This document shows, piece by piece, positions 28,301 to 56,276 of a stretch of DNA of 64,000 bases (position 1 is its first letter; the number at the start of each line of letters is the position of its first letter). A program made the position numbers and the translations under genes. The notes below the pieces were generated by a model, which was not told the origin of the DNA, searched no databases, and was given only the letters and a program-made list of their open reading frames with translations. Location: contig OZ076409.1 in assembly GCA_964187785.1 (NCBI GenBank), positions 65,102,001 through 65,166,000 on the forward strand, written 5' to 3'. The stretch comes from Amphiscolops sp. MND2022 (taxonomy: Eukaryota).

Positions 28301-31300
28301 ACAAAAAGGAGCATTTCAACTTCTCGACTTTCACCTCTGAGAACCAATGAGAATGGCGATTTTCAATGGAAAATCGACGAGTTTTTGTTTTGTAGATTAA
28401 AAAAAAGTTCCAACAACTCTTTGTTATTGAATATTCCCCGACATCATTTCTGTTTCTCATGAGTTTTTCGAGCTGCTTCGCAAAGAACTTCTGCACCCCT
28501 AGAAAGACATGAATTAATTCAGCTATTTGGGAGTTTTTCTGATGACATTTATAGCTTCCTCCCCTACCGGAAAAATCAAAACGATTCCGAATGTTTTTTG
28601 TCATTTTTTCCTTTCAGTGGCAAACGTGTGCTTCAATCTAGCAAAACGCCGAAAACATTCACGAAATCAAAGGGCTATCATTTGAACAAGTGGAAGATTT
28701 CCGGAAAAAAGTCGAATAGTGCCGAAGAAACGGTAGGTCTTTTTTCAAATTTTTTGAGAAAATTATTATCTGTCCCACAGGACAAAAAACATTGAGCCCG
28801 TTCTTAAGATTCGGAAAGCGGATTTCCTTGCCTGAAAGTCCAAAAAACGCAAAGTTGTTTTCACAAATTATCTTCGAAAGTTTTTTCGAATTGTCGCAAA
28901 GTGTCGAATAAAACAAAGTGTCCCTCCATGCATGCAAAACGCTCTGTTTCTGCGAAAATCATAGGGGTTACTCCAGTCGAGAACTTCAGAAACAAAAGCG
29001 CATAATGCTGAAAAAACCCTGAAGAAGGACTTTTTTAGGTCTTTACTATAATCTGCTCTTTTTACGAAAGCGCTGACGAAGTCACTGCAATAGCAGTGTA
29101 CTTTTCTCTTTTCCCATAGCGCTGACAAAAAGGAGCATTTCAACTTCTCGACTTTCACCTCTGAGAACCAATGAGAATGGTGATTTTCAATGGAAAATCG
29201 ACGAGTTTTTGTTTTGTAGATTAAAAACAAAGTTCCAACAACTCTTTGTTATTGAATATTCCCCGACATCATTTCTGTTTCTCATGAGTTTTTCGAGCTG
29301 CTTCGCAAAGAACTTCTGCACCCCTAGAAAGACATTAATTTATTCAGCTATTTGGGAGTTTTTCTGATGACATTTATAGCTTCCTCCCCTACCGGAAAGA
29401 TCAAAACGATTCCAAATGTTTTTTTGTCATTTTTCCTTTCAGTGGCAAACGTGTGCTTCAATCTAGCAAACCGTCGAAAACATTCATGAAATCAAAGGGC
29501 TTCCATTTGAACAAGTGGAAGATTTCCGGAAAAAAGTCGAATAGTGCCGAAGAAACAGTATGTATTTTTCAAATTTTTTGAGAAAATTTTTATCTGTCCC
29601 ACAGGACAAAAAACATCGCGCCCGTTCTTAAGATTCGGAAAGCGGGTTTCCTTGCCTGAAAATTAAGAAAAGGCAAACCTTTTCTCACAAATTTTCTTCG
29701 AAAGTGTTTTCGAATTGTCGCAACGTGCCGAATAAAATAAAGTGTCCCTCCATGCTTGCAAAACGCTTTGTTTCTGCGAAAATCACATGGGATACTTCAG
29801 TTGAGAACTTCAGAAAAAAAGCGCATAATGCTGAAAAAACCCTGACGAAGGACTTTCTTTAAGTCTTTACTATAATCTGCTCTTTCCACGAAACACACGA
29901 CTAAGTAACTGCAATAGCAGTGTACTTTTCTCTTTTCGATTAGCGCTGACAAAAAAAAACATTTCAACTTCTCGACTTTCACCTTTGAGAACCAATGAGA
30001 ATGGTGATTTTCAATTGAAAATCGACGAGTTTTCATTTTGTATATTTTAAAAAAGTGCCAACAATTCCTTGTTAGTGAATGTTCCCCGACATCACTTCTG
30101 TTTCTCATTAGGTTTTCGAGCTGTTTCGCAAGGAGCTCCTGCACCCCTAGAAAGACATGAATTAATTCAGCCAATTGAGTTTCTCTGAAGACATTTATAG
30201 CTTCCTCACCTACTGGAAACATCAAAAAAATTTCAATGGTTTTCTCTTTCAATTTTTTCCTTTCAGTGGCAAAAGTGTGCTTCAACCTAGCAAAACGCCG
30301 AAAAATTCATCAATATAAAGGGGTACAATTTGAACAACTGGAAGTTTTTTTGGAAAAAATCGAATAGTGCCAAAGAAATTGTATGTCTTTTTTCAAAAGT
30401 TTTGAGAAACTTAACATCCGTCTCAAAGGACAAAAAATATCGAGCCCGTTCTTAAGATTCGGAAAGCGGGTTTCCTTGCCTGAAAATTAAGAAAAAGCAA
30501 ACTTACTCTCACAAATTTTCTTCGAAAGTGTTTTCGAATTGTCGCAACGTGCCAAATAAAATAAAGTGTCCCTCCATGCTTGCAAAACGCTTTGTTTCTG
30601 CGAAAATCACATGGGATACTTCAGTTGAGAACTTCAGAAAAAAAGCGCATAATGCTGAAAAAACCCTGACGAAGGACTTTCTTTAAGTCTTTACTATAAT
30701 CTGCTCTTTCCACTAAACCACCGACTAAGTCAATGCAATAGCAGTGTTTTTTCTCTTTTCGATTAGCGGTGACAAAAAAGAGCATTTCAACTTCTCGACT
30801 TTCACATTTGAGTTTTTCAATTGAAAATTTACAATTTTAAGTGCCTAACAAAACTGCACTATGTTTGTTTATTTGTTTTTTGAACAACCTTGATAAAAGC
30901 AGAATTCGGAGCTATTTTCTTGGTCTATTTCTTTTTAAATAAATGACGGTTAAGTTCATTTCTAACACTATTGTATTCCTTAGTGCGATTAGCAGAACCA
31001 CCTGCATGATGACTTCCATGGTTGATGAGATTGAAGGACAATCTCTTTCACCTCCCCCTCCATGTTTTCAAAAAACTAAATGTGCACCTTATGAATTCCA
31101 CTAAAATTACTCTCTAACACTACCTAAAACGTTCTGTGTTACTTTAATTGGATGACTACACATAAATGCAGGTAATCAGCTACTCATTTCTGCAAAATGT
31201 GACATGTTTCCACATAATTTTTTTTGCATGTGAGGGGTCTCCTGCAGTACAATCCTAACGCGTTAGTCATGGAAGTGCTTCAATCTTCCAACTGGGTATC

Positions 31301-34300
31301 CCTAATAGTGCGTATTGAACCAGATTTCAAGTTTTCCAATGGTGATTATTATCCGTGAAAAGTGATTTGAAACAAAACATGCCGAGAAGTGCCCAAGTCG
31401 GAGCCCCGTGCAAAGTTCAAAATCCTGAAGTTTCTTGAATATGCAAAAGGACACTATTGTTAAAATTTCATCAGTTTTACAGAGCCAAAAAATACCCGAC
31501 GGGATATGCATAAGACTAGAAAACCACTTTTTCCCCAACTGGAGACAACAAAACCTCTCAAAAAAACTAAAAGTTGAGGGAACATTTTTTTGGACTTTTT
31601 TGAAAACTTTTTCAAATGATGTTTCCGGTAATTTGCACAGTGCCGAAAACCCTCAGGAGTCCTCTATGCTCGCAAAACTCGATGTTTCGTTGCTAGTAAA
31701 AATCGGGAGGGGGGTTTCAATAGAAAAAAGTCTGAAAAAAAGTTTAATGGAGAAAACGCCGGAAAAAAAACAAAATTCGGATATAGCGTACTGAAAAAAA
31801 AACAATTTCAAAACAAAATAATATTTTGAAAAATCTTACGATACCGAAACTTGTTAAAAAGGGGGGCTTTGGGCTTTTTGAAAGTCCACTTTGATGTCAA
31901 GTATCAAAAATTTGAAAGAGTGACCCTTTGGAGACAATGAAAAATTTTCGAAAAAAAATAGAAATGAGAATATAGGGCCAAAAAAAGTAAAAGGTGGCCT
32001 CTTTGCAATTTTCTAACATCCATTTAATTGCAAAATATGAAACAATATGGAGGGGGGACCCTTTGGACAGAATAAAAAACTTTCGAAAAAATTCTCACAA
32101 AGCCGAAATATTAAGAACAGAAAATAAAGTCGAATGGTGCCGAAGAAACCGTAGGTCTTTTTCAAAACTTTTGAGAAAATTATCATCCGTCCCAAACGAC
32201 AAAAAACATCGAGCCCGTTCTTAAGATTCGGAAAGCGGGTTTCCTTACTTGAAAATCCAAAAAAAAAAACAAAATTGTTTTCACAAATTTTTTTCGAAAG
32301 TTTTTTCAAAATGTCGCAAAGTGCCAAATAAAATAAAGTGTCCTTCCATGATTGCAAAACGCTTTGTTTCTGCGAAACTCACAGGGTTACTTCAGTTGAG
32401 AACTTCAGAAAAAAGCGCATATTGCTGGAAAACCCTGAAGAAGGACTTTTTTTGACTATTTACTATAATCTGCTCTTTCCACGAAAGCACCGGCTAAGTC
32501 ATTGCAATAGCAGTGTACTTTTCTCTTTTCTTTTCGATCAGCGCTGACGAAAAAGAGCATTTCAACTCCTCGACTTTTACCTTTGAGAACTAGTGAGAAT
32601 GGTAATTTTTAATTGAAAATCGACGAGTTTTCATTCTGTAGATTTAAGGAAAGTGCCAACAATTCCTTGTTATTGAGTGTTCCCCGACATCACTTCTGTT
32701 TTTCATGAGGTTTTCGAGCCGTTTCGCAAAGAGATCATGCACCCCTAGAAAGACATGAATTAATTCAGCCAATCGAGAGTTGTTTCAAAAACATTTATAG
32801 CTTCCTCCCGTACTGGAAACATAAAAAAATCCAAAGGTTTTTTCTTTCAAATTTTTCCTTTCAGTGGCAAAAGTGTGCTTCAATCTAGCAAAACGCCGAA
32901 AACATTCACGAAATCAAAGGGCTACCATTTGAACAATTGGAAGATTTCCGGAAAAAAGTCGAATAGTGCCGAAGAAACAGTAGGTCTTTTTTCAAATTTT
33001 TTGAGAAAATTATTATCTGTCCCACAGGACAAAAAACATTGAGCCCGTTCTTAAGATTCGGAAAGCGGATTTCCTTGCCTGAAAATCCAGAAAAAGCAAA
33101 GTTATACTTACAAATTTTCTTCGAAAGTTTTTTCAAACTGTCGCAAAGTGCCGAATAAAACAAAGTGTCCCACCATGCATGCAAAACGCTCTGTTTCTGC
33201 GAAAATCATAGGGGTTACTCCAGTCGAGAACTTCAGAAACAAAAGCGCATAATGCTGAAAAAACCCTGAAGAAGGACTTTTTTAGGTCTTTACTATCATC
33301 TGCTCTTTTTACGAAAGCGCTGACGAAGTCACTGCAATAGTAGTGTACTTTTCTCTTTTCGATAAGCGCTGACGAAAAAGAGCAATTCAAGTTCTTGACT
33401 TTCACCTCTGAGAACCAATGAGAATGGTGATTTTCAATTGAAAATCGACGAGTTTTTATTTTGTAGATTAAAAAAAAGTTCCAACAACTCCTTGTCATTG
33501 AATATTCCCCGACATCACTTCTGTTTCTCATAAGTTTTTCGAGCTGTTTCGCAAAGAGCTCCTGCACCCTAAGAAAGACATGAATTAACTCAGCCAATTG
33601 AGAGTTTTTCTAAGGACATTTATAGTTTGCTCCCCTACTGGAAACATTAAAAAAATTCCAAAGGGTTTTTCTTTCAATTTTTTCCTTTCAGTGGCAAACG
33701 TGTGCTTCAATCTAGCAAAACGCCGAAAACATTCATGAAATCAAAGAGCTTCCATTTGAACAATTGGAAGATTTCCGGAAAAAAGTCGAATAGTGCCGAA
33801 GAAACAGTAGGTCTTTTTCAAATTTTTTGAGAAAATTATCATCCGTCCCAAAGGACAAAAAAACATCGAGCCCGTTCTTAAGATTCGGAAAGCCGGTTTC
33901 CTTGCCTGAAAATCCAGAAAAAGCAAAGTTATACTTACAAATTTTCTTCGAAAGTTTTTTCAAACTGTCGCAAAGTGCCGAATAAAATAAAGTGTCCCTC
34001 CATGCTTGCAAAACGCTTTGTTTCTGCGAAAATCACAGGGGATACTCCAGTTGAGAACTTCAGAAAAAAAGCGCAGAATGCTGAAAAACCCTGACGAAGG
34101 ACTTCCGTTAAGTCTTTACTATATTCTGCTCTTTCCACAAAACCACCGACTAAGTCACTGCAATAGCAGTGTACTTTTCTCTTTTTGATTAGCGCTGACA
34201 AAAAGAGCATTTCAGCTCCTCGACTTTTACCTTTGAGAACTAGTGAGAATGGTAACTTTCAATTGGAAATCGACGAGTTTTCATTCTGTAGAATTAAGGA

Positions 34301-37300
34301 AAGTGCCAACAATTCCTAGTTATTGAGTGTTCCCCGACATCACTTCTGTTTTTCATGAGGTTTTCGAGCCGTTTCGCAAAGAGATCATGCACCCCTAGAA
34401 AGACATGAATTAATTCAGCCAATCGAGAGTTGTTTCAAAAACATTTATAGCTTCCTCCCGTACTGGAAACATAAAAAAATCCAAAGGTTTTTTCTTTCAA
34501 ATTTTTCCTTTCAGTGGCAAAAGTGTGCTTCAATCTAGCAAAACGCCGAAAACATTCACGAAATCAAAGGGCTACCATTTGAACAAGTGAAAGATTTCCG
34601 GAAAAAAGTCGAATAGTGCCGAAGAAACGGTTGGTCTTTTCTCAAATTTTTTGAGAAAATTATTATCTGTCCCACAGGACAAAAAACATTGAGCCCGTTC
34701 TTAAGATTCGGAAAGCGGATTTCCTTGCCTGAAAATCCAAAAAAGCAAAGTTGTTTTCACAAATTATCTTCGAAAGTTTTTTCGAATTGTCGCAAAGTGT
34801 CGAATAAAACAAAGTGTCCCACCATGCATGCAAAACGCTCTGTTTCTGCGAAAATCATAGGGGTTACTCCAGTCGAGAACTTCAGAAACAAAAGCGCATA
34901 ATGCTGAAAAAACCCTGAAGAAGGACTTTTTTAGGTCTTTACTATAATCTGCTCTTTTTACGAAAGCGCTGACGAAGTCACTGCAATAGCAGTGTACTTT
35001 TCTCTTTTCGATTAGCGCTGACAAAAAAAGCATTTCAACTTCTCGACTTTCACCTCTGAGAACCAATGAGAATGGTGATTTTCAATTGAAAATCGACGAG
35101 TTTTTATTTTGTAGATTAAAAAAAAGTTCCAACAACTCCTTGTTATTGAATATTCCCCGACATCACTTCTGTTTCTCATGAGTTTTTCGAGCTGCTTCGC
35201 AAAGAACTTCTGCACCCCTAGAAAGACATTAATTTATTCAGCTATTTGGGAGTTTTTCTGATGACATTTATAGCTTCCTCCCCTACCGGAAAGATCAAAA
35301 CGATTCCAAATGTTTTTTGTCATTTTTTCCTTTCAGTGGCAAACGTGTGCTTCAATCTAGCAAAACGCGAAAACATTCATGAATTCAAAGGGCTTCAATT
35401 TGAACAAGTGGAAGATTTCCGGAAAAAAAAGTCGAACGGTGCCGAAGAAACGGTAGGTCTTTTTCAAATTTTTTGAGAAAATTATTATCTGTCCCACAGG
35501 ACAAAAAACATTGAGCCCGTTCTTAAGATTCGGAAAGCGGATTTTCTTGCCTGAAAGTCTAAAAAAAGCAAAGTTGTTTTCACAAATTATCTCCAAAAGT
35601 TTTTTCGAATTGTCGAAAAGTGTCGAATAAAACAAAGTGTCCCTCCATGCATGCAAAACGCTCTGTTTCTGCGAAAATCATAGGGGTTACTCCAGTCGAG
35701 AACTTCAGAAACAAAAGCGCATAATGCTGAAAAAACCCTGAAGAAGGACTTTTTTAGGTCTTTACTATAATCTGCTCTTTTTACGAAAGCGCTGACGAAG
35801 TCACTGCAGTAGCAGTGTACTTTTCTCTTTTCCCATAGCGCTGACAAAAAGGAGCATTTCAACTTCTCGACTTTCACCTCTGAGAACCAATGAGAATGGC
35901 GATTTTCAATGGAAAATCGACGAGTTTTTGTTTTGTAGATTAAAAAAAAGTTCCAACAACTCTTTGTTATTGAATAATCCCCGACATCATTTCTGTTTCT
36001 CATGAGTTTTTCGAGCTGCTTCGCAAAGAACTTCTGCACCCCTAGAAAGACATGAATTAATTCAGCTATTTGGGAGTTTTTCTGATGACATTTATAGCTT
36101 CCTCCCCTACCGGAAAAATCAAAACGATTCCAAATGTTTTTTGTCATTTTTTCCTTTCAGTGGCAAACGTGTGCTTCAATCTAGCAAAACGCCGAAAACA
36201 TTCACGAAATCAAAGGGCTATCATTTGAACAAGTGGAAGATTTCCGGAAAAAAGTCGAATAGTGCCGAAGAAACGGTAGGTCTTTTTTCAAATTTTTTGA
36301 GAAAATTATTATCTGTCCCACAGGACAAAAAACATTGAGCCCGTTCTTAAGATTCGGAAAGCGGATTTCCTTGCCTGAAAGTCCAAAAAACGCAAAGTTG
36401 TTTTCACAAATTATCTTCGAAAGTTTTTTCGAATTGTCGCAAAGTGTCGAATAAAACAAAGTGTCCCTCCATGCATGCAAAACGCTCTGTTTCTGCGAAA
36501 ATCATAGGGGTTACTCCAGTCGAGAACTTCAGAAACAAAAGCGCATAATGCTGAAAAAACCCTGAAGAAGGACTTTTTTAGGTCTTTACTATCATCTGCT
36601 CTTTTTACGAAAGCGCTGACGAAGTCACTGCAATAGTAGTGTACTTTTCTCTTTTCGATAAGCGCTGACGAAAAAGAGCAATTCAAGTTCTTGACTTTCA
36701 CCTCTGAGAACCAATGAGAATGGTGATTTTCAATTGAAAATCGACGAGTTTTTATTTTGTAGATTAAAAAAAAGTTCCAACAACTCCTTGTCATTGAATA
36801 TTCCCCGACATCACTTCTGTTTCTCATAAGTTTTTCGAGCTGTTTCGCAAAGAGCTCCTGCACCCTAAGAAAGACATGAATTAACTCAGCCAATTGAGAG
36901 TTTTTCTAAGGACATTTATAGTTTGCTCCCCTACTGGAAACATTAAAAAAATTCCAAAGGGTTTTTCTTTCAATTTTTTCCTTTCAGTGGCAAACGTGTG
37001 CTTCAATCTAGCAAAACGCCTAAAACATTCATGAAATCAAAGAGCTTCCATTTGAACAATTGGAAGATTTCCGGAAAAAAGTCGAATAGTGCCGAAGAAA
37101 CAGTAGGTCTTTTTCAAATTTTTTGAGAAAATTATCATCCGTCCCAAAGGACAAAAAAACATCGAGCCCGTTCTTAAGATTCGGAAAGCCGGTTTCCTTG
37201 CCTGAAAATTAAGAAAAAGCAAACCTTTTCTCACAAATTTTCTTCGAAAGTGTTTTCGAATTGTCGCAACGTGCCGAATAAAATAAAGTGACCCTCCATG

Positions 37301-40029
37301 CTTGCAAAACGCTTTGTTTCTGCGAAAATCACATGGGATACTTCAGTTGAGAACTTCAGAAAAAAAGCGCATAATGCTGAAAAAACCCTGGCGAAGGACT
37401 TTCTTTAAGTCTTTACTATAATCTGCTCTTTCCACGAAACACACGACTAAGTCACTGCAATAGCAGTGTACTTTTCTCTTTTCGATTAGCGCTGACAAAA
37501 AAAACATTTCAACTTCTCGACTTTCACCTTTGAGAACCAATGAGAATGGTGATTTTCAATTGAAAATCGACGAGTTTTCATTTTGTATATTTTAAAAAAG
37601 TGCCAACAATTCTTTGTTAGTGAATGTTCCCCGACATCACTTCTGTTTCTCATTAGGTTTTCGAGCTGTTTCGCAAGGAGCTCCTGCACCCCTAGAAAGA
37701 CATGAATTAATTCAGCCAATTGAGTTTCTCTGAAGACATTTATAGCTTCCTCACCTATTGGAAACATCAAAAAAATTTCAAAGGTTTTCTCTTTCAATTT
37801 TTTCCTTTCAGTGGCAAAAGTGTGCTTCAACCTAGCAAAACGCCGAAAAATTCATCAATATAAAGGGGTACAATTTGAACAACTGGAAGTTTTTTTGGAA
37901 AAAATCGAATAGTGCCAAAGAAATTGTATGTCTTTTTTCAAAAGTTTTGAGAAACTTAACATCCGTCTCAAAGGACAAAAAATATCGAGCCCGTTCTTAA
38001 GATTCGGAAAGCGGGTTTCCTTGCCTGAAAATTAAGAAAAAGCAAACTTACTCTCACAAATTTTCTTCGAAAGTGTTTTCGAATTGTCGCAACGTGCCAA
38101 ATAAAATAAAGTGTCCCTCCATGCTTGCAAAACGCTTTGTTTCTGCGAAAATCACATGGGATACTTCAGTTGAGAACTTCAGAAAAAAAAGCGCATAATG
38201 CTGAAAAAACCCTGACGAAGGACTTTCTTTAAGTCTTTACTATAATCTGCTCTTTCCACGAAACCACCGACTAAGTCAATGCAATAGCAGTGTTTTTTCT
38301 CTTTTCGATTAGCGGTGACAAAAAGGAGCATTTCAACTTCTCGACTTTCACCTCTGAGAACCAATGAGAATGGTGATTTTCAATGGAAAATCGACGAGTT
38401 TTTGTTTTGTAGATTAAAAACAAAGTTCCAACAACTCTTTGTTATTGAATATTCCCCGACATCATTTCTGTTTCTCATGAGTTTTTCGAGCTGCTTCGCA
38501 AAGAACTTCTGCACCCCTAGAAAGACATTAATTTATTCAGCTATTTGGGAGTTTTTCTGATGACATTTATAGCTTCCTCCCCTACCGGAAAGATCAAAAC
38601 GATTCCAAATGTTTTTTTGTCATTTTTCCTTTCAGTGGCAAACGTGTGCTTCAATCTAGCAAACCGCCGAAAACATTCATGAAATCAAAGGGCTTCCATT
38701 TGAACAAGTGGAAGATTTCCGGAAAAAAGTCGAATAGTGCCGAAGAAACAGTATGTTTTTTTCAAATTTTTTGAGAAAATTTTTATCTGTCCCACAGGAC
38801 AAAAAACATCGAGCCCGTTCTTAAGATTCGGAAAGCGGGTTTCCTTGCCTGAAAATTAAGAAAAAGCAAACCTTTTCTCACAAATTTTCTTCGAAAGTGT
38901 TTTCGAATTGTCGCAACGTGCCGAATAAAATAAAGTGTCCCTCCATGCTTGCAAAACGCTTTGTTTCTGCGAAAATCACATGGGATACTTCAGTTGAGAA
39001 CTTCAGAAAAAAAGCGCATAATGCTGAAAAAACCCTGGCGAAGGACTTTCTTTAAGTCTTTACTATAATCTGCTCTTTCCACGAAACACACGACTAAGTC
39101 ACTGCAATAGCAGTGTACTTTTCTCTTTTCGATTAGCGCTGACAAAAAAAAAACATTTCAACTTCTCGACTTTCACCTTTGAGAACCAATGAGAATGGTG
39201 ATTTTCAATTGAAAATCGACGAGTTTTCATTTTGTATATTTTACAAAAGTGCCAACAATTCTTTGTTAGTGAATGTTCCCCGACATCACTTCTGTTTCTC
39301 ATTAGGTTTTCGAGCTGTTTCGCAAGGAGCTCCTGCACCCCTAGAAAGACATGAATTAATTCAGCCAATTGAGTTTCTCTGAAGACATTTATAGCTTCCT
39401 CACCTATTGGAAACATCAAAAAAATTTCAAAGGTTTTCTCTTTCAATTTTTTCCTTTCAGTGGCAAAAGTGTGCTTCAACCTAGCAAAACGCCGAAAAAT
39501 TCATCAATATAAAGGGGTACAATTTGAACAACTGGAAATTTTTTTGGAAAAAATCGAATAGTGCCAAAGAAATTGTATGTCTTTTTTCAAAAGTTTTGAG
39601 AAACTTAACATCCGTCTCAAAGGACAAAAAATATCGAGCCCGTTCTTAAGATTCGGAAAGCGGGTTTCCTTGCCTGAAAATTAAGAAAAAGCAAACTTAC
39701 TCTCACAAATTTTCTTCGAAAGTGTTTTCGAATTGTCGCAACGTGCCAAATAAAATAAAGTGTCCCTCCATGCTTGCAAAACGCTTTGTTTCTGCGAAAA
39801 TCACATGGGATACTTCAGTTGAGAACTTCAGAAAAAAAAGCGCATAATGCTGAAAAAACCCTGACGAAGGACTTTCTTTAAGTCTTTACTATAATCTGCT
39901 CTTTCCACGAAACCACCGACTAAGTCAATGCAATAGCAGTGTTTTTTCTCTTTTCGATTAGCGGTGACAAAAAAGAGCATTTCAACTTCTCGACTTTCAC
40001 ATTTGAGTTTTTCAATTGAAAATTTACAA
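22254..40029. repeat. Tandem segmental duplication (22254-30833 and 30834-40029)
   Basis: Non-satellite sequence 22254-~23550 recurs almost exactly 8580 bp later; both blocks end at the same satellite variant CACATTTGAGTTTTTCAATTGAAAATTTACAA. Confidence 0.88.
23550..30833. repeat. ~823-bp satellite, block 1 (~9 monomers)
   Basis: Anchor TTCAGTGGCAAA recurs at ~24499, 25321, 26143, 26967, 27789, 28613, 29438, 30262. Confidence 0.95.
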
Positions 40030-40649
40030 GTTTTTATTTTGTAGATTTAAAAAAAGTTCCAAAAATTGTTATTGAATATTCCTCGACATCACTTTTGTTT
40101 CTCATGCGTTTTTCGAGCTGTTTCGCAAAGAACTCCTGCACCCCTAGAAAAACATTAATTTATTCAGCTATTTGGGAGTTTTTCTGATGACATTTATAGC
40201 TTCCTCCCCTACCAGAAACATCAAAACGATTCCAAATGTTTTTTGTCATTTTTCTCTTTTCAGTGTCAAACGTGTGCTTCAATCTAGCAAAACGCCGAAA
40301 ATTCATGAAATCAAAGGGGTACCATTTGAACAAGTGGAAGTGTTTCGGAAAAAAAGTCGAATAGTGCCGAAGAAACCGTAGGTCTTTCTCAAAATTTTGA
40401 GAAAAATATCATCGGTCCCAAAGAACAAAAAACATCGAGCCCGTTTTTAAGATTCGGGAAGCGGATTTCCTTGCCTGAAAGTCCAGAAAAAGTAAAGTTG
40501 TTTTCACAAATTATCTTCGAAAGTTTTTTCGAATTGTCGCAAAGTGTCGAATGAAACAAAGTGTCCTTCCATGCATGCAAAACGCTCTGTTTCTGCGAAA
40601 ATCATAGGTGTTACTCCAGTCGAGAACTTCAGAAACAAAAGCGCATAAT
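32128..40649. repeat. ~823-bp satellite, block 2 (~10 monomers)
   Basis: Same anchor every ~823-826 bp from ~32860 to ~40259. Confidence 0.95.
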
Positions 40650-41050
40650 TGTGATGCCATGATGCATGTCCTCAAAGATTCTATAAATCTGAAATACTCT
40701 GAACTCTTAACCAAAGCAATTAGTAAATGTAATCTAATTTAGAAGCTAAGAAACTTCATTTAATAGATCCTGTATCAAGCTCCCCTGCTTCATCCTGTTG
40801 CTGTCACATTGTTAATTGATGTAACCTACCCTAGTTAATAGAATATATCTACTCGGAGAAATTGAGAAATCATCCTAGCAATCGGTCTTCCTCCCATACT
40901 TCAAGAACTGAGATCTCAGAAATAGATTGTACTCAGAAATAGCTAGCTACAAGATATAAGACAAGACGACTCTGCTGTTAAAATCTTAGACTTCTTATGT
41001 CAGTACTAACACTTCTAAAAGAAACCACCACACAACTTTTTAACAGCTCA
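40650..41050 (+). repeat. 5' LTR of element B
   Basis: TGTGATGCC...AACAGCTCA; about 7 differences from 58129-58529. Confidence 0.95.
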
Positions 41051-41052
41051 AT

Positions 41053-41062
41053 TGGTGCGACC
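41053..41062 (+). promoter_or_regulatory. Putative PBS of element B
   Basis: TGGTGCGACC after LTR CA plus a 2-nt AT spacer; primer tRNA not identified (only the first 7 nt fit tRNA-Gly(TCC)). Confidence 0.6.
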
Positions 41063-41243
41063 AAGAAAATTCTTCTTTCTCTCCCATTCATTTCACACAT
41101 CTACAATTGTTGTACCTCCTTCCTCGACTTTCTCATACGCTATCTCTTTGTTCGACACACAATTTCTCCACCTCTCAATATCGCCTATCGTTACTAACTT
41201 CAACGTTGCAACCAATTTCTATTTAAAATTGATCTGTGTTGCT

Positions 41244-41500
41244 ATGGTTCTGACTGCGTTTCTCACCGTAATTCCTGTCAGTCATATTTCTTGGTTCTGA
41301 CTACGTTTTTTGACGTAATTCCTGTCAGTAAATTTTTCGTTCCAACCACATCTGAGTGAATTCGTGTTGGCTTTCTCTCTTTCTTCCGTTCCAACCGCAG
41401 ACGTGCGATACGTGTTGGCCCTTCTACAGTGCTATCCAGCGATTCCTGCTAGTGGAAATCTCTTTGGTTCTAGCCGCTTGGATCAACTTTAAAAGTTGGC
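41244..41500 (+). other. Array of 4 (+1 degenerate) structurally conserved RNA hairpins in the element B leader
   Basis: GTT + 5-bp outer stem (CTGAC/GTCAG x2, CCAAC/GTTGG x2) + inner stem-loop + 6-7-nt 3' bulge. Confidence 0.7.
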
Positions 41501-41734
41501 ACACCTATATAACACATATTTTCTACATAACATAATTACAATACCTTTCTTGTTCTCTCTTTTCTAATACACACAACATACAAAACTCTTTTAAAACTAG
41601 CTTACGGATCCAAATACATAACAATTAAAATATATAACACATACATCACATATTTCTTTATATAACTTTCACTTTTCATTCACCTATATAAAACAAATTT
41701 TAATGCAACCTATTGGACTTATTCTTCATGGTAC

Positions 41735-41857
41735 ATGCCGCCTTCAGTAGACACTATAGTTAAACTCATTGTCTGCTTTTGGTTCTTTGTTGCTATCATT
41801 GCCGGTCTTGCACTTTTTCTGGACAAATTCTTAATTTCATTCATACCAAAACTTTAA
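41735..41857 (+). CDS. Small ORF, 40 aa, single predicted TM helix
   Basis: MPPSVDTIVKLIVCFWFFVAIIAGLALFLDKFLISFIPKL; below the ORF-track size cutoff. Confidence 0.4.
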   Translation: MPPSVDTIVKLIVCFWFFVAIIAGLALFLDKFLISFIPKL

Positions 41858-41876
41858 AGTACAACCTTTTTCTTCT

Positions 41877-42116
41877 ATGTTAACAAGTATAGTACTACCT
41901 CTTTTTGGACTACTTAGTATCTACCACACTTTCCATACACTTATCCAATATATACAAAACCCACTCCTTCTTTTTATAAGTACTGTACTTACTATTTTCT
42001 TACAAGTTGTTTTCATAGATCAAATTTTACCATATAATTCACAATTCAATACAAAATATCTTCTTTTCCGATACATCTATCCTTTATGGCAATCTTATTG
42101 TACTAATCAAACTTAA
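41877..42116 (+). CDS. Small hydrophobic ORF, 79 aa, just upstream of gag
   Basis: Two hydrophobic stretches; packed between the 40-aa ORF and gag ATG 42126. Confidence 0.35.
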   Translation: MLTSIVLPLFGLLSIYHTFHTLIQYIQNPLLLFISTVLTIFLQVVFIDQILPYNSQFNTKYLLFRYIYPLWQSYCTNQT

Positions 42117-42125
42117 TATCAAATA

Positions 42126-45100
42126 ATGCTTCCCACTCCATTTACAGTCACTACTGACAAAAGACAAAATCGATCTCTTATACAAGATGTAACACCTTTT
42201 CTACAAAACATTATCTTTCAGTACACAGACCCACTTCCATTTGAAACAGAACCCCATATATTACATACTATTTCATTAGTACGAGAATATTGTGATTCTT
42301 ATCTATATTATATCCACTATAAAACACTTGACATTACACCATCACAAATCCCTTTTCAAGTTATTTTTAACCCTGTTAAAGGAATAAACCTTGGAACATT
42401 TTATAGAACTATACACCCACAAAATATTACACTTTCTATACAAGATGTTTTTCACACATACATGCAAAAACTCATTGAATTCAATGAAAACCAAGACACA
42501 CCACCTTATCGTCCTTCTCATTTACAAGAACTATAACACAGATCTGAATATTTTGAGGTCCCAGATCTTGACACGAAAGTCCAACGACATGATAATCCTC
42601 ATTATTGGTTACAACGAGATATCTTACAAATAAAACATTTTCAGTACAGATTCTTTAACAACATTATCCTTACAGATGACACTATACCTCAAGTCAAAAT
42701 TTTTACACAATTCTTATTAAAGTTTCTTAGATTTAACTACCAACTAATTTGGGAACAAAAAGATCAACAAGCCTATGTTAACTTCCCTCAAATATTAACA
42801 CATATAGAACTCTTACCATACATCATAAAAAATGAAAACAGACATTTACATTACCGAGATCTTACTTCATTAAAGGTTACACATTTTGAACAAATAAACT
42901 TAGATCACAACTTTGTACTTGAACATTCTGAAACATCAGATAACAGACCCTTTACTACACCTGATACTTCCCATGAAACAATTCCTGAAGAACAAACCTC
43001 TAGTGTTGAACCTTCATATACAAGACAACAATCAGAACAATCAGAACAAGAATCTCCAGAACAAGAAGCCCTTGTTAATCTTTTTCAAAATCCTGATCCT
43101 CCTCAAGAACAACCATCAGACCCACCATTATCACAAATCTCAGATATGCAACAACCAAATCCTTCTGAAACAAATACAATTCACAATACATCAGAATTTT
43201 CTGAAGGAACAGTACAAAATACACGAAGTTTTACAATAACCGATGATTCAAATCTTATAATAATTCCTACCCACAATATCACACAAAATGAATTTACAAA
43301 CCAACATCAAGACAACACTTCAAATACAAACCCAGACAATACCTCTATTTTATCTACATCTAATACTAATATTACTCAATCCTCTCAGACACAAATACTA
43401 TCTCCTCGAAATTATAATCCACCTTCTGTTCCACCTCAATTCTCATGACTCCTCTCAACAAAGCTCATCAAATACACCCTACATTGCACAAAACAATAAT
43501 ACAGTACATTTTCAAACACCAACTCCACCATCATCTTCTGAAATAAAAACTTCGAATTATACTCCAGCTCAAACCAATTCAGTACAAACTACACAAACTA
43601 CCTTAAACATTAACACCATCCATTCCAACCCATCTACAAATTATACCACTGCCAGACATCTTTCTCGACCTCCATTACAACCTATATTAACTAATCCATT
43701 ATCATACAGTCTCACGAGTACTAATCCAAGTCATACACAACAATCTCAGATAATTTACAACACACCCAACCCAATAAATACTCTTTCTTCTCAACATACA
43801 TCCAATACAATCATTCCTACATTACAAACTTCTCAATTTCAAATACCAAATCCTCCTTCAACAACAATTAGAACTAACCCTCACTTTAATAATACTTCAA
43901 CTACTTCTTTACCTAATATTTCAAATAATCCTACGTACAATACAACACCCCCATCTACTACATCTTATAACACTATGTCACACCCAACATATATTAACTC
44001 TTCTACTTCTATATCAGAACCCATTAAACCTTTTGATGGACTCGATCACAACTATACACCTGAAGAATATTTACAACATATTGAGGCACGTGTTACATTT
44101 TCCTTAGGTTTACAACCTACATCAGAACATGAATATAAATTTTGGCACGCCCGTCGCATGGCTTTCATACAATGCTCTTTAACAGGTACAGCACTCAGCT
44201 GGTACATTCGTTTAAACGACACTTATAAACATGATTGGCACGCTTTTGTACAAGCTTTCAAAAAACAATTTTCTTCACAAAAGAACGCTTACTATGCTCA
44301 AGTTGAAGCCCTTAATTTAACTAAAAAAGATAATGAAACAGTACGTCATTTTGCACTCAAAGTTCAACAGCTGGTTGAAAAAGGCTTGTGTAATGAGAAT
44401 GCATCCACAATAAACCTCAAATGTAATGAAATCTTTACAAAAGGACTTCCAAAAAATCTTAAAGACTTTGCAAATAAAAGGCAAGTAAAACACACCTCCA
44501 CTGTTCTAGAACCTTCAATTCCTTTTCATACATTAGTAAAACTTGTTGACGCTGAAGATATAGCAAACGACAAAATCAGAACACATGATCTTGCACTTGA
44601 AATTAATAATATTACAAAACAATTGAACACTCAAACTCTTGATCACTCATCTCAAGAACAACTTATGTATACACAACCCAAAGACCCAAACAACAAAAAT
44701 AAACCTGCATATAAAAAATATTGCTCATACTGTCATAGAACAAATCACTCCATTTCTGCTTGTTTCAAAAAACAACGAGATGATGAAGATAAACGAGAAG
44801 CATATGCTCGATCAAAATCTCCACAAAAATCATTCGTTCAGTACTCCCGTTCTCCTTCCAATGATAGAACAAAACACTATGATAATCGATACCGAAGTCG
44901 AAGTACCTCACGAGACAACTCTTACAACAAAAATTATTCACAAAACCGATACCGTTCAGCATCTCGAGATAGAGATAGATTTTGTTATGACAAAAGTACT
45001 ACTCCTCCACACTACTCTAGATCAAGATATGATACATACAAACGTGATTCTCGATCTTACCGTTGTCCCTACTGATCTTCTTATAGATCCCCATATCGAC

Positions 45101-45249
45101 AAAACTCTCGTCCTAGATACAGATCACGCTCCTATTCAAGAGACAACAAATTCACAAAGTACACAAATTCATATAGACCACCTTCAAAACCAAGAGACTC
45201 TAGATTTTCTAGATCTCGCTCACACTCCAATTCTAGAAATAAAGTCAAT
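42126..45249 (+). pseudogene. gag: gag region of element B (~1040 codons; TAA at 42534, frameshift ~43445, TGA at 45073)
   Basis: IKPFDGLD capsid-like motif, CSYCHRTNHSISAC knuckle, RS/Y-rich tail; the frame continues into pol after 45075. Confidence 0.85.
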
Positions 45250-48200
45250 ATGATACAACAACAAGACCAAACTGACCCTATCAAATTTGAAGTACACATG
45301 TATCACCCAACAGCAATGGCAAATGCTGTCACACCTACAAGTTGGTTTTATACACTATATGTACACACCCCATCAAGTATAGTACAAAGAGACAACCCAT
45401 CTAGATTAGAAATTGCATTCCTTCTAGATAGCGGTGCTTCCATATCTGTACTCAATTACCCAACATACATAACTCCTACAAAACTTCTAGATATTAGATC
45501 AAATCACACCTCTGATGTTGGACCAACTCGCAATTCCAAAACATTAACCATTGCAAACCAAACTGATGTTCCTATTTTACATTATGCCAATATAATTTTC
45601 AACACCACTATTGATGAAGACTCTCGTTTCTTTTCAGTACCTTTCGCCGTAGCTGACATCAAATACAACATCCTTGGCACACCATTCTTTGAAGACAATA
45701 TACAAAACAAAAACATACAAGACTTTACACTCGAATTTAAATACCAATCAAAAACACACCCAAATTATGCAAAATTTACAACACTCCTATCTAAAGATTA
45801 TCCCTACTTCTCTTACATTTATAGAATTAACTCAAAAACTCAGATACGTCTAAAACCCAAAATTTCAAAAATTGCACACTTTCCGATCAAAAATTATCAT
45901 AATCTTCATTTTACAACTACACCACGAAACCACTTCTTTCCTTCAGTACCTCATACCTATTTTGCTACCAATTTCCGTACAAATTTCAATTTCATTGAAG
46001 TATTTACAGACGACAAGCCAGATATTTGTGCAACTATTATTCAGAACACTTCAAAACATATTGCAACCCTACCTCCAGGACATATTGGATACATTGAAGT
46101 TCCAATTACTAATGAAAAACCTAAATTCTTCCAAGTTAACGACATTAATACTTTAATACATAACGTTACCCATACTTATCATCCTGATATTACTGAACCA
46201 CTTCCACAGACCAACTATATTGTACAATATGATGATCCTACAACCCCTGCTCCTCAATTTTCTCTACATCAAATTTGTATGACAAATAAAGACGTTGCAA
46301 ATCAAACTTCTCCTTTATATAACGTTCAGCCTACTTCTCATACTTCCGAAAAACGCAATTTCCCTTCTCTACCATATACTTCTGAAAATCTGAAATTTAT
46401 TAATGAATTTAACTTCCAATTTTCTGACCTTACAGATTCAGAAGACATTACTCTTTGCGATATGTTACTCAAGTATAAGACATGCTATGCAACTCATAAA
46501 AACGATGTTGGAAAAATTTCAACACCATTTCGTATACGACTTAAACCAAATGCTCAACTTATGACACAACGTCCTTCCAAAGTCCCTATCCACTACCGAG
46601 ACAAACTTAACGTACTTCTCAAAGAACTCGAAAACTATAACATTATTAAACAAATTGGTTCTTCTCCTCAAGACAAACCCGTTTATGGCACAACTTATTT
46701 AAACCCCCTTATTATAATTCCCAAGGGAGATACAATAAAATGTGTATTAGACGCTCGACATCTTAACTCCAATACAGAACAATCCGATGAATCTTGGCCT
46801 ATTGAACCTCTTGCTCCACAACTAGCACGCGCAAATAAAAAGTACAAATCGGCTATTGACCTTATGTATGCCTATGCACATACACCTCTTGACGAAGATA
46901 CTATAAAACTCACTAGTTTCTCTTCCGGAGATAAACTTTTCGCTTTTATTCGAGGCTTTTATGGTCTCAAAGGACTACCAAACTTCTTTACAAAACAAAT
47001 GTCTACTTTCTTTAAAACTCTTATAGAACAAGGTTTCGCTCTTGTCTACATTGACGATATATTACTTTTATCTGATTCAAAAGAACACATGTTCCAACTC
47101 ATAGAACAACTACACATTATTAGTACAAAAAACAATCTTAAACTAGCCCCTGAAAAATCCTTTTTCATGCTTCTTAAAGTCAAATTCCTTGGACATGAAA
47201 TTGGTTACAATACAATTAAACCAAATCATTCAAAAATTGCAGCTATTCATAAGATCCCTTCTCCAACTGGCAAAGTTGCCCTAATGAGTTTCATTGGCGC
47301 ACTCAATTTTTACACCAAATTTATTGAAAAACTACATATTAACCTCAAACCATTTTACGATCTTTTACATGAGAACACTCCTTGGAAATGGACAGACGAA
47401 CACGAAAGTCTATTCCAAAAACTTAAAATGTCTCTCACTTCTGAAACAGAATTAACAATACCAAATACAAAACATCCATTTTTCATTACAGTTGACGCTT
47501 CCCTTATTGGATTAGGCGCTGTCTTATTCCAATTAAATGAACAAAACAAAATGAAAGTCATATCATACAACTCTCGTATACTTAATCCACAAGAACAAAA
47601 ACTCTCCACACTTGATAGAGAACTTCTTGGTATAGTACACGCACTTCAAATCTATGAATTTCTCATTATAGGTTCTCCCCATCCAATACACATTTTTACT
47701 GATCACAAACCTTTATCACATTGTTTTACAAAGAAAGGTAATCTCAGTCCTCGTTTCTACAGAGCTCAAATGCAATTGACAAAATTTTCAAAACTCAAAA
47801 TAATTCACACTCCTGGAAAAAATCTCTCTGTTGCCGATATGTTGAGTCGCTCCTTCACAAAAGCTGAATTACAACTAAACCAGTTAAAACATAAACACCT
47901 CCCACCACAAATCGATTTTGCACTTTTACAAGATAACACTCTTAAACCTGTACATTACTTAATAAAACATGAAGAAATTTTACCTCATCAAAAACATGAC
48001 TCTCATCCAATTCTCGCTGATTATGGTACAGATCAATTCTCTATTCGTATCAATGATAAAGGAAATGACATTGTTGTCAAACCGTTACAATCCTTCTCAT
48101 TCAAATCCATAACTCCTTTTCAAACTAAGTTCAAGACACCTACAAAAAAGAACAACAAAACCCTCCATCAACAGTCTCTCTTACTTAATGATACTGACGT

Positions 48201-50296
48201 TACAAGTGATGACGAAGATCATATTTACACCAGAATTCCAAAATCTGACTCTTCCTTCTTACAAGACACAACATTACAAACAGAAAATTATTCTACTCTT
48301 AAACAACCAACTCACACTACCTCACAAAAATCAATTTCTGCAATAAATGTACAACCAAATTTACCATCTCTCACACACTGTCAACAAATCATACCTTTCT
48401 ATGATACATCATTTTTTAAGTACAAAAACTATTTTCAAGGTTTCTTCCTTCCAGATGATTACTCATTAGACATAAAAACTCTTCAACAACAACAATCCCA
48501 AGATCCGGTACTTAGAATTGTTTATTCTTGGTTATTAAACAATGAAAAACCCGAATTTGTAACACCTCTTATTACTGGTACTCCATTTTTACATGTATAT
48601 TACAAAAGAGTTTCACAACTTTTCATTGACGAATCCACAAATTTTATTAGTCTATATATTACAAACCCTACTGTTATAAACCAATCCTCTACTCCAAACT
48701 TTGTACAAGACACTATTCGTATATGCCTTCCTTTTCGACTGTTCAAAACTGTCTTTAACAAACTCCATGAACACTCTCATACTGGTATGAAAATTACATA
48801 CAATACATTCAAACAATATTACTACATTCCATTCCTTGAAAAATGGCTTTCCATTTTCATACATGATTGTATTGAATGTCAACGAAACAAACACTTTAAT
48901 ATGAAAATTCAAACTGCTCCTACACAATCTTTTTCAGAACATGCTCCATCTTTTAACTATCGAATTTCAATGGACACTAAAGGACCTATTAATCCTCCTT
49001 CTCGCAATAAATCCTATATACATGTAATTATTGACGCTTTTAGTCACTTTGTTGTTACAGTACCCATTAAATCAAACAACGCAAAGACTGCTATCAAAGT
49101 TCTCCTACACCATTGGATTATTAAATTTGGACCACCAATATATCTTGTCACTGATCGTGGATCAGAATACGTTAATAATGAAATGGCACACCTTTGCACA
49201 CTTATGGGAATTCGTCATTCTCCTAGAACAGCTTACTCTCCTTGGACAAATGGCCTTGTTGAAGTACAAAACAGAAATCTTGGTACCCATTTACGAATGT
49301 TCTTACATGACACACCTAAGGATTAAGCATTCCAAGTCCATATGTACGCTTATGCACATAACTCACAACCACTTTCAGAACTCAACATTTCACCTCACGA
49401 AATTGTTTTCCACACCCGACCCAGAATACCCCTTACATTTGATTTGAACCTTATCCGAGACACCTCTAAAACATGTATTTCTCCCAACTTCCAGCACACT
49501 CCCATTATGATAAATCAGATTTAAACCCATTTTTCTATAAAACACTTTAAAACCCATCCCACATTGGTTTCTCGCTGTAGAAACTGCTATGTTACAAATT
49601 TTTTCTACAGTATACGAAAACACTCTAAGAAAAATCAATTCACACGCATATATTACAAAAACTTACCATGAAGGTAAACCCCTTCCTATTGGTACTTTTA
49701 ATTTAAAACGTAATTTTACACACAATCACTTTTCTGACAAACTAAAACCCCTTCGGATTGGACCATACAAAATTCTTGACAGATTATCAGACGTCACATA
49801 TGAACTACTTGCACAAGATGGCTCTACAGTACACGTCCACAGAAATCATTTAATTCCATATTATCCAAAAGAACCACTCTTGTATCCACACCTGCGTAAA
49901 TTTATGCGCTTTTCAGACACAACTCAATTTCAAATTCCACAACCTACCAAATATGCAAACAGTGATTCTTCTCCTTTTAACTCAGACGAATCGTTGTCAG
50001 AAGAAGATTCCCAAACATTTGTAACACCATCATCATTTAGTACATCCAATCAAAATACACCATCTATAGCATCCAATGACAAGTTTTTGACTCCCTCAAC
50101 CAATGACAACTCCTTATATAGACATATAATTAATACCCCTCACACTAATGTCTCTAGTGACAGATCAAGACACTCATCTAATAACCAAACAACTTCACTT
50201 CCTTCTCTAATTGACAGAACCACAAAAACTACTTATAAACTACGACAACAACCCAAATTAGATTATAGACTTTTTATTACACCTTCAAAACTGTAA
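45250..50296 (+). pseudogene. pol: pol of element B (PR, RT, RNase H, IN); stop at 49324 and frameshifts in the integrase C-terminus
   Basis: LLDSGAS; YIDD; VDAS...RELL...TDHKPL...ADMLSR; HEHSH...CIEC; SMD...TDRGSE...GLVE; IGPY (GPY/F) motif in 49589-50296. Confidence 0.93.
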
Positions 50297-50382
50297 TCCA
50301 GTCATTCTATCCGTTGGCTCACTCAAAACTAGTCACTCCAGTTGAATGAAATATAACCCATAACAAGTTATCTCAAAGATAA

Positions 50383-51624
50383 CCTGTTGAAAACACTTCA
50401 ACAACCCTGGATCCTCCCTCTGATATATCTCCATCAGCTCCAAGTATTCCTTCCCCACCTGAATCTTCAGTATCTAGCACTACAAACTCTAGTAATGTAA
50501 CTCCTACTACTCCTTCTAAAAGATCAAGATCATACATCTCTGAAACCACCTCTTCTTCCCTTCTTCACAGACCACCTATAACTGAAATTCCTATAAACAC
50601 TCGTCCTCAACAAACTCCTATTAACACTCCTATTATACATATAATAAACCCTGAAAGTGTTGAACAATACTTAACATACAAACATCCTACAGCTATCAAA
50701 ACTGTTAGACTACAACCTCAACTTAATCTTGTACAAATCCCTGCTACTGAATATACAAAGCTACCTTCACTAAAATTACCTTCAGAACTTAGCACTACTT
50801 CTTCAAAACTTTATCCACCATTAAAACCCCTTCGAAAACCCTCTACATCACTCTCAAATCTTTTAGACAATAATACTTCAGATTACGCTCCATCACAAGA
50901 CACACGCTCCCTTTTTGTACCTAAACATAGATATAACCTTCGTGACCTCCCTTCACGTAGACTTAGTACAGACACTTCAACACTCAATTTTTCTGCTCTT
51001 TCTAGCAATTCTGCACTACGACTTGTAAGACAACACGCTCAACCATTGTCCTCTGACGCATCATCTTCAGAACTCTTTCAATCTCCTTATTTTACTTCTG
51101 GTTTTGAAACCGCTTCATTACTCTCATCTAACCCTCAGACTGCATTTTTATCAGGAGACCTTTTTTCACAAGTAGTAATCCCTACTCCCGTTCCTGCACA
51201 AATTAGACTATCCGAATACTATACTGCAGAACACTCTAGACCCCCAACTCAAAATTTTGCTGACTATCCACTTAGAGTCGATGGTATTACCATCTACGAC
51301 CCACAAAACGACCCCCGATTTCCAATTCTTGCAGAACGTTTCATTAATAACAACGACCTCTTATCTCACAAACGCAAAGAAACAGAACTAAAACGCCTTC
51401 AGACACCAAATCTAGAACTTAAATTTGAAGTCAAAGTCAAATTTCAAGGATTAAATCCACACCCAATATTTCACGTTTCTAAAATAGAACATAAAACCTC
51501 TCCTGCTCCTTTTGAAGTAGTACATATTGAATTTGAACGCGATCTTAATATACCCACTATCACATATGGCAACATTGTCTTCTGTAACCCATATTCCGGT
51601 CTTAAATATACAACATCTTTTTAA
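50383..51624 (+). CDS. ORF between pol and env, 413 stop-free codons without ATG; S/T/P-rich N-half, globular-looking C-half
   Basis: Frame of track ORF 51046-51624 read manually and found open back to 50383. Confidence 0.6.
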   Translation, partial: PVENTSTTLDPPSDISPSAPSIPSPPESSVSSTTNSSNVTPTTPSKRSRSYISETTSSSLLHRPPITEIPINTRPQQTPINTPIIHIINPESVEQYLTYKHPTAIKTVRLQPQLNLVQIPATEYTKLPSLKLPSELSTTSSKLYPPLKPLRKPSTSLSNLLDNNTSDYAPSQDTRSLFVPKHRYNLRDLPSRRLSTDTSTLNFSALSSNSALRLVRQHAQPLSSDASSSELFQSPYFTSGFETASLLSSNPQTAFLSGDLFSQVVIPTPVPAQIRLSEYYTAEHSRPPTQNFADYPLRVDGITIYDPQNDPRFPILAERFINNNDLLSHKRKETELKRLQTPNLELKFEVKVKFQGLNPHPIFHVSKIEHKTSPAPFEVVHIEFERDLNIPTITYGNIVFCNPYSGLKYTTSF

Positions 51625-54273: not shown

Positions 54274-54536
54274 ACTTTCTCTCAGTTTTTCTGTAACTCT
54301 CTTTCAGTACACTTGCCTACGATCTCTTCACAATTGCTACTCCTCCACCGCTCAAAACTCTTGCAGAAGTTCATCTTCCTCAGCCCAACAATACTTCTCT
54401 AATAATAACCGTCTTCAAAAACTCTTCAACTAAAGTTGATAAATCCACTCGTTAGTGTAATTTATAGTACTTTCACTTTAAAGTGCTAAGGCCTCTTGGA
54501 ATAGATAACACTGTGATTGTTGATGTTTTTAAAACA

Positions 54537-55656
54537 ATGACACAAGCACAAATTGACCTACGAACACAGCTTGAACAAGCAACCCCAACAGATCTTATAA
54601 CTAGACCTCTTTCAAATGATTCTCCTGTTCTCTATATCGAAACTTCAGAACAAACACCTCCAACTTTTCTTGAACCAATGGAACACACAAAAGTTGGAAA
54701 CGAAAATTCAAAACCTACTCCTCCACAAGATGATACTGATCATACACAATCGACACCACCTCCTCCAAAAAAACGATATGCAATAATGAAAGATCCAATC
54801 TTTCTTTCATCACCAATATATCCTCCTTCAATACCTTCAAAAATTTCACTTTGCACGAATCGCGACGATCATTTGATCTCAATTCTTTCTACTGACGATT
54901 TCGTCTTCAAAGCACAGCTAACTTCTCTATATATGCATCCTACTGACTACTCATTTCGATTATATGACAAAAATCAAGACTTCTTCACATCCATTGCTTC
55001 CAAAATAATGGGTCTATACCAATATTGGCTCGAAAATGGAGTTAAAATTTTCTCTCTCCAATTCAATTTTCTTCGACCTTCAATATACGATCTCAAAACA
55101 GATGAATCTGATCCATCTTTTCTCTCTATAGCACAAAAGCTACTCATCATCAAACATATACTAAACTCCTGCAATACACGAAACCACAAAATCACATTTT
55201 TGTCAATTACAAATATACATCACCGTTCACAATGACAAATATGTACACTCTGGACCACTCCTGTATAACAGGCTACCTTCGAAACTATGACCCTATAAAA
55301 CAATACTTCTGTTTGCTTCCATACAACAATACTTCACCCCCACTTATTGTACCTCAAGAATATCTCATACATTACGATGATTTTTGTTGCCTTGCAACAT
55401 TCCTACTCAAATTGTCAAACCTCTTACTGTTATTAAACACCTAGTATCTTCTCCACTTGACGATAAAGATAGAACATACTATACAGCACTCTACAAGCAA
55501 ACGTATTCCTACAACGAACTTCTCTTTATCTCTGCCAAAACTATCTCTTTCATGGTACAAGCTGAACAAAAAACTGAACATAAATCACACGCTTCACCTA
55601 TAAAAAACGCTCCTGACAAATTTTCCTCTGTATTAAACAACCGAACACCGACATAA
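54537..55656 (+). pseudogene. Post-env accessory ORF, apparently broken by frameshifts
   Basis: Overlapping ORFs 54483-55235, 55232-55444 and 55384-55656 tile continuously; PPPKKR NLS-like motif. Confidence 0.5.
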
Positions 55657-56276
55657 CAAATTTACTTGAACCCTATAAACGAAACTCCTCTGAAACACCT
55701 ATCACAACACTCACACATATACTACACTGCTACGACAGAACACACAAACTCCTTCAGACACTCGATTTAGACTCCCAACGCATCACTCAATCATCCCAAG
55801 CAATCCAATCTGCTTTGGAAACTATAACTACTCTTTTTAACTCAACTAATCTTCATTAAACTCTTCTACAGGTAATATAAAGTTCTTAATTTTTCTTCTT
55901 TGGTACACTTTATGATACATCTGTGGCATATTTTAAAAGGTATTTTCATTTTTACCTACTTATTTAAAGTAAATTCTTGCTTTTGAATGAAATCTCAGGA
56001 CTATTTTTCAAGTACACTATTTTTTCCTACAGTACATGTCAAAAAGCTAACTATTTCTATCAAAAAACTACAATACAAGACATACAAGACAATATAACAC
56101 AACACTACATATGATACATTATAGCACCCAATTTTGTTGTACATCTTTGCCCTGATATTGTCATTCTTCTTACACTTCCTTTGTTTTAGAAACATCCATT
56201 CTTCTTCCTCCTCCTTCCATTCTCTTTCAGAACATCTCCACTTCTCCTTTTTCGTCCTCTACAGGACTCTCTCGTC

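Follow-up and report, generated by a model that had tools for sequence, protein, structure and literature searches.

A selectively conserved array of five small RNA modules, one of them circularly permuted, in the leader of an env-bearing Ty3/gypsy element

The stretch of DNA analysed here, a window of 64 kb to which all coordinates refer, contains a Ty3/gypsy element whose leader carries a run of short hairpins between the PBS and gag. What is this array, and what does it do for the element? The first-pass annotation took it for a motif that acts as RNA and recurs in the leader behind the PBS. We find such a motif, and we find it under selection. It consists of five copies of one small module, and we tentatively read the array as a packaging signal.

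The array-bearing element is an env-bearing Ty3/gypsy element of 17.9 kb with two LTRs (40650–58529), inserted within an 824-bp satellite. The satellite itself (23500–40649 and 58530–59400) has about 20 copies of several subtypes and is interrupted by an insertion of about 1.8 kb near 31–32.5 kb. The 5' LTR (40650–41050, + strand) is 401 bp long, has TG...CA ends and is immediately preceded by the target-site duplication TAAT; the 3' LTR (58129–58529, + strand) is directly followed by TAAT, and the two LTRs have 7 mismatches over 400 positions. Two bases past the 5' LTR lies a PBS-like TGG motif (41053–41062, + strand), read from the sequence, for which the supplements of PMC13524379 offer no matching primer tRNA. 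The gag region (42126–45075, +) has a capsid-like domain (PF03732, E 5e-9), and its translation reads as one CCHC knuckle plus a basic, RS-rich tract. It is followed by pol, in pieces (45076–50296, +; RT, RNase H and integrase, with PF00078, PF17917, PF17919, PF00665, PF17921 and PF22938), and by an env-like class III fusion glycoprotein (51521–53821, +; PF24664, E 3.5e-24). We assign the element to the env-bearing Ty3/gypsy group on its TG...CA LTR pair, target-site duplication and PBS, and on the order gag, RT-RNase H-integrase, env, the last taken from Pfam matches in frames that are broken here. The reading frames of this copy are damaged, gag being disrupted by stops and frameshifts. Close relatives of the element's proteins fall into clusters, the largest of 1758 unnamed ENA proteins, and include subfamilies at 72–79% and 45–49% identity in RT-RNase H; the pol cluster has relatives of up to 2691 aa, and the 113 env relatives are, every one, unnamed ENA records. 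The type of element suggests an invertebrate animal as its host.

Several features of the element and its surroundings are recorded here in their own right. A TATAAA is found at 40682, just 32 bases or so from the start of the LTR (401 bp), and implies a leader of about 1.4 kb; the LTR contains neither AATAAA nor ATTAAA, which together with the early TATAAA suggests a very short U3 and a long leader. The sequence just before the 3' LTR (58100–58128) is T-rich and mixed, with no polypurine tract, and plus-strand priming may therefore be unusual. Between the array and gag there is a 40-codon ORF with one hydrophobic stretch (41735–41857, +), followed by a 79-codon hydrophobic ORF from 41877. The former recalls in its position sORF2 of MDG1-group elements, described as a small transmembrane protein of 63–107 aa, but it is shorter and does not have the myristoylation start described there (PMC11952523). 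Three further ORFs of the element have no Pfam match (50383–51624, 54468–55235 and 56190–56729, all +). Elsewhere in the window, a second Ty3/gypsy element (10831–17755, − strand) carries, between its protease and RT, a domain resembling dUTPase (PF00692, E 1e-4), and the start of its gag is duplicated at 2862–3374; long ORFs of 727 and 400 codons at 6449–10599 (+) give only a weak zinc finger in Pfam.

The array begins some 190 nt and ends some 430 nt behind the PBS, upstream of gag and outside the LTR, with about 650 nt left before gag. Its modules are 32–36 nt long, and we refer to their conserved part, as distinct from loops and linkers, as the core. Four modules are linear. They are present exactly as the first-pass annotation wrote them, with their GTT at 41247, 41294, 41339 and 41388, and when each hairpin is folded alone its minimum-energy structure has the proposed one-sided bulge between two stacked stems. 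Module 1 (41246–41281, +) has a GGTT flank, a P1 of 5 bp, a P2 of 4 bp (one of them G-U) and a 6-nt bulge, and module 2 (41293–41328, +) has an identical P1. Module 3 (41338–41370, +), with a CGTT flank, a second type of P1, a 3-bp P2 and a 7-nt bulge, is the weakest fold, its pair probability in context being below 0.1 whatever the span allowed. Module 4 (41387–41418, +) again has a CGTT flank, and its P2 is capped by a GACG tetraloop on an A-U closing pair.

The fifth copy had been set down as degenerate, at about 41466. It is in fact intact and circularly permuted (module 5, 41434–41483, +): the 3' strand comes first, GCG-ATTCCT-GCTAG (41439–41452) preceding GGTT-CTAGC-CGC (41466–41477) across a 13-nt linker, and the whole is closed by an outer stem (41434–41438/41479–41483). 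All eight core stem pairs of this module are Watson-Crick, and the structure is the minimum-energy fold of the isolated segment 41428–41490. P1 is 5 bp long in every copy, with C-G at its start and end. Three P1 sequence types occur among the five copies, the third being that of module 5, where five of five pairs are Watson-Crick. That the array conserves structure but not sequence, as had been proposed, is overstated, given these three types and a set of core letters that is strictly conserved. The linkers between modules are 67–100% pyrimidine.

Within the window, the module is confined to this array. A sequence pattern has four matches in the 64-kb window and none in any of 100 shuffles. 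Our structure descriptor, which specifies two strands (N-G-T-T + P1 + P2 and P2' + bulge + P1') in either order, returns exactly five modules in the 64 kb with both strands searched; it finds no further site in the rest of the element or window, and none in the second Ty3/gypsy element. Among 5000 shuffles of 41240–41500, one contained a single strict site, five contained a single loose site and none contained two. A covariance model built from the four linear copies, with P2 partly out of register, finds those four again, and its best other match in the window has an E-value of 0.44. The folding energy of the region is ordinary (z −0.13 against shuffles; +0.3 to −2.4 for single units), and the in-context pair probability of P1 in modules 1, 2 and 4 ranges from 0.06 to 0.98 depending on the span allowed, in a nearest-neighbour model that is blind to pseudoknots. 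What speaks for the modules is that they recur, that they pair and that they are selectively conserved; energy is no part of the case.

Selective conservation can be followed in related copies. One public sequencing run, the only one listed and with a small share, contains two contigs of such copies that cover the array; no RNA run is listed as containing the sequence. None of the 11 listed array differences in these contigs falls in the core, and all are in loops or linkers. With the core making up 85 of the 154 reportable array positions, P is about 1e-4 for this outcome; four further differences in the contigs are unlisted, and if all four were in the core P would be about 0.008. For a second comparison we used nine proteins called by chance over the leaders of related copies and set them against the window's own translations (sets of six and four proteins with one shared; P0330 and P0333 were left out as unrelated repeat proteins). 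Mismatches amount to 25 of 304 residues in the core, 33 of 59 in loops, 27 of 131 in linkers and 101 of 396 upstream. Loop residues differ 7 times as often as core residues, in counts that are not independent and are biased towards similarity by the way in which matches were found and trimmed.

Nine of the 25 core mismatches are most simply explained by an A/G switch opposite U in P2, a change that keeps pairing on the + strand only. The remaining 16 lack clearly kept pairing: eight come from the decayed copy P0332 and eight are scattered, several of them breaking a pair. No new two-sided change is seen in the close relatives. The relatives also show how the array itself varies. Two of them have three type-1 units in place of two, and module 5 is retained, both its strands being identifiable in related gene calls while its closing loop varies. 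In module 4 the GACG loop is unchanged in six of the seven related gene calls that cover it, while the other loops vary.

Reading each module as a bulged hairpin, as the first-pass annotation did, captures hairpins that are real but leaves out a second regularity. In all five copies the invariant TT is preceded by two bases that can pair with two others close to the bulge's end, as GG with CC (modules 1, 2 and 5) or as CG with CG (modules 3 and 4). On account of this complementarity we predict a small pseudoknot, and because the flank complements the bulge in five of five copies and the fifth copy is permuted, the module is probably not a plain bulged hairpin. Across the four linear copies, P1 and the flank-bulge pairs are paired in 28 of 28 cells, with a two-sided change in three of the seven pairs, against 21–43% paired in slid controls; the count covers P1 and the pseudoknot only, as the alignment offsets P2. 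The two-sided changes are found only between paralogues within the array, at one or two events per pair, and each amounts to about one event because the linear copies are paralogues of two sequence types. For the pseudoknot this leaves one two-sided event and an invariant G-C. We consider it very likely that the stems form and fairly likely that the flank-bulge pseudoknot does too.

In textbook H-type pseudoknot geometry, the deep groove separates the 5' end of such a stem from the P1/P2 junction, the point at which the bulge begins. A crude A-form model puts the shortest cross-groove phosphate distance at 10.0–10.4 Å, at 5–6 pairs; it speaks to plausibility only, because the direction was taken from textbook pseudoknot geometry and not from the model. 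In the predicted fold, P1 and P2 would stack, and the S-G-U-U flank would span the deep groove of the 5-bp P1 to pair with the bulge. The contacts would be S-S', G-C and a reverse-Hoogsteen U-A, as in a T-loop or a type II UA_handle. Two bases would be flipped out and a C-G pair would be exposed at the end of P1, comparable to G19-C56 of the tRNA elbow.

The likeness to a T-loop extends to individual letters. In tRNA numbering, the flank and the first P1 base correspond to S52 G53 U54 U55 C56, and the last P2' base and the bulge to R57 A58 W59 W60 C61 S'62. The tRNA invariants are given as G53, T54, Psi55, C56, A58 and C61, and the semi-invariants as R57 and Y60 (PMC10424219); G53, U54, U55, C56, R57, A58 and C61 are matched in all five modules and Y60 in four, a match that was spotted post hoc. 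As in the G19-C56 pair of the elbow, the module's equivalent of C56 pairs with a G, and the 52-62 pair is present in five of five copies. However, a tRNA T-loop is a contiguous loop of 7 nt on a 5-bp stem, whereas in the module two helices interrupt the loop between 56 and 57, and the 'T-stem' has only two pairs. A D-arm, an acceptor stem and a tRNA are all absent. We have not filed the module as a T-loop because its loop is not contiguous, although a split loop of this kind may act like one. The five modules also carry the type II UA_handle signature (G-U / A-N-N-C), in which a G-C goes with a bulge of 2 nt and the C is not preceded by G (PMC2615604). Of the UA_handle signatures in rRNA, only 35% are reported actually to fold so (PMC2615604).

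Has the module been described before? The first-pass annotation proposed a search of Rfam, and no family there matches the motif: Rfam 15 gives one chance match (E 7.4) over 40600–42200 and nothing at gathering score over 40600–58600, self-cleaving ribozymes included. In the full-text literature searched, which included few subscription papers and supplements only of PMC13524379, no paper on such a motif in a retroelement leader is listed. Scans with the element's RT-RNase H find no relative in the viral contigs and prokaryotic genomes searched; in metagenomes they give two distant matches (26–28% identity), on contigs too short to include a leader. The motif patterns have no match in prokaryotic genomes, nor does the module 5 pattern in viral contigs. 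Pattern matches in phage contigs (44 distinct ones in 97 loci) are at chance level: five have an all-Watson-Crick P1 where about 5.5 are expected, and none of the five has P2. One phage contig passes the loose descriptor (L001/L060; L001 401–437, −) and has no Rfam match.

Three simple identities for the array were considered and discarded. A coding repeat was rejected on the ground that there is only an 18-codon ORF, whose AUG is lost in P0331, and extra primer sites on the presence of TGGT in just three of the five copies. A self-cleaving ribozyme, for which Rfam gives no match, was rejected because cleavage here would separate the PBS from the genome.

Our tentative proposal, argued by analogy and with somewhat less than an even chance of being right, is that the array is a multivalent Gag-binding packaging signal for the element's genomic RNA, one that would probably also serve dimerisation. 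Several Gag molecules would bind the module folds together with the linkers, which are rich in pyrimidine, and two genomes would make a kissing contact through the GACG loop of module 4. The array has the position of retroviral packaging signals: it is structured, lies outside the LTR and falls between PBS and gag. On the other hand, no strong splice donor motif that could confine the array to unspliced RNA is seen in 40650–42200. GACG tetraloops are reported to serve packaging and dimerisation in several retroviruses (PMC516450), the single-knuckle NC of Ty3 to be required for packaging (PMC4974528), and HIV-1 matrix to bind the tRNA elbow (PMC10424219). A major Ty1 Gag site is placed in a 5' pseudoknot, for which a packaging role could not be demonstrated (PMC4974528).

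A host factor might instead bind the fold for export or translation of the unspliced RNA, in the manner of a CTE or as part of an IRES or shunt past upstream AUGs. We consider this rather unlikely, although the leader of about 1.4 kb does contain six AUGs after the PBS and before 42126, where gag probably starts. A CTE also has repeated loops, in opposite orientation. Simple retroviruses use such a structured CTE with NXF1 (PMC12789967), and tRNA-like shapes are known to recruit host factors (PMC10424219). However, the CTE described is at the 3' end (PMC12789967), the array stops well short of gag, with other small ORFs in the intervening 650 nt or so, and no Rfam IRES or export family matches.

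The T-loop letters suggest a bolder version of genome selection, which we hold to be doubtful, though conceivable: each module would be a minimal mimic of the tRNA elbow, its split T-loop rebuilt by the pseudoknot and the elbow's C-G pair exposed, and would be self-contained enough to have undergone natural circular permutation; the array would capture an elbow-binding protein and select the genome by mimicry. The partner may be a protein of the element, Gag or Gag-Pol, or a host enzyme that exports or modifies tRNA. Box B of BMV resembles a T-loop. It is reported to be needed for template recruitment by protein 1a (PMC5869524).

There is a slim chance that the array is a response element for an accessory protein encoded by the element, in the way that RRE serves Rev and TAR serves Tat. 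Repeated sites are typical of accessory proteins that multimerise, and the three extra ORFs without a Pfam match could supply one. However, these ORFs have no link to RNA binding; in the ESM Atlas, which covers two of the three here, one has only matches of 0.79 and the other none that is usable.

It is about as improbable that the modules are exoribonuclease-resistant RNAs that stall Xrn1 and shield the coding RNA downstream. The 5' end paired back above a short P1 and the tandem copies do resemble PK1 of flavivirus class 1 xrRNAs (PMC8374639), but the bulge has 6–7 nt against a ring of 15–16 nt in that class (PMC8374639). The third helix P3 and the three-way junction are absent. There is no second pseudoknot (PK2) either: the best complement between loop and downstream sequence is 2–3 nt, and the loops are the most variable part. 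In module 5, moreover, the flank is enclosed by a loop instead of forming a free 5' end. The permuted copy speaks against a directional block and fits a three-dimensional module bound by protein, as the packaging-signal reading would have it.

Finally, it is very unlikely that only the stems are real, or that the repeats act as DNA sites for factors, with the flank-bulge pairing and the T-loop likeness due to chance: tandem repeats in gypsy leaders are often enhancers or insulators, the folding energy is ordinary and independent covariation events are few, but three P1 sequences all pair perfectly, the permuted copy has all core elements in rearranged form, an A/G switch is tolerated opposite U, and loops change far more than the core.

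The choice of RNA for packaging is poorly defined in metazoan Ty3/gypsy elements and invertebrate endogenous retroviruses, and a 2016 review describes Ty3 RNA structure as uncharacterised (PMC4974528). A module of 32–36 nt that is repeated, selected and naturally permuted, and that carries T-loop letters, is a small, testable target. A real pseudoknot would be a compact RNA fold that Rfam lacks, and mimicry of the tRNA elbow, if true, would give a retroelement a new means of labelling its genome.

Among known systems, the element is most readily compared with the gB-type env-carrying Ty3/gypsy elements (errantiviruses in the wide sense), with which it shares the order LTR-PBS-gag-pol-env, a class III fusogen and the occurrence of many similar copies, as described in PMC13524379. 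It differs in being 17.9 kb long with extra ORFs, and its RT-RNase H identity to named relatives is only about 30%. The main text of PMC13524379 mentions neither a UTR nor a stem-loop. Flavivirus class 1 xrRNAs are described as elements of the 3' UTR, whereas the array is in a 5' leader and has one permuted copy. Like retroviral, Ty1 and Ty3 packaging regions, the array lies between PBS and gag, contains several short hairpins and one GACG tetraloop (compare the GACG stem-loops of MLV), and goes with a Gag that has one CCHC knuckle. Unlike the MLV, Ty1 and Ty3 regions as these are described, it consists of five copies of one small module, one of them permuted, in which the 5-bp stem and the core letters are fixed. 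The class of function is one already known, and the fold itself appears to be undescribed.
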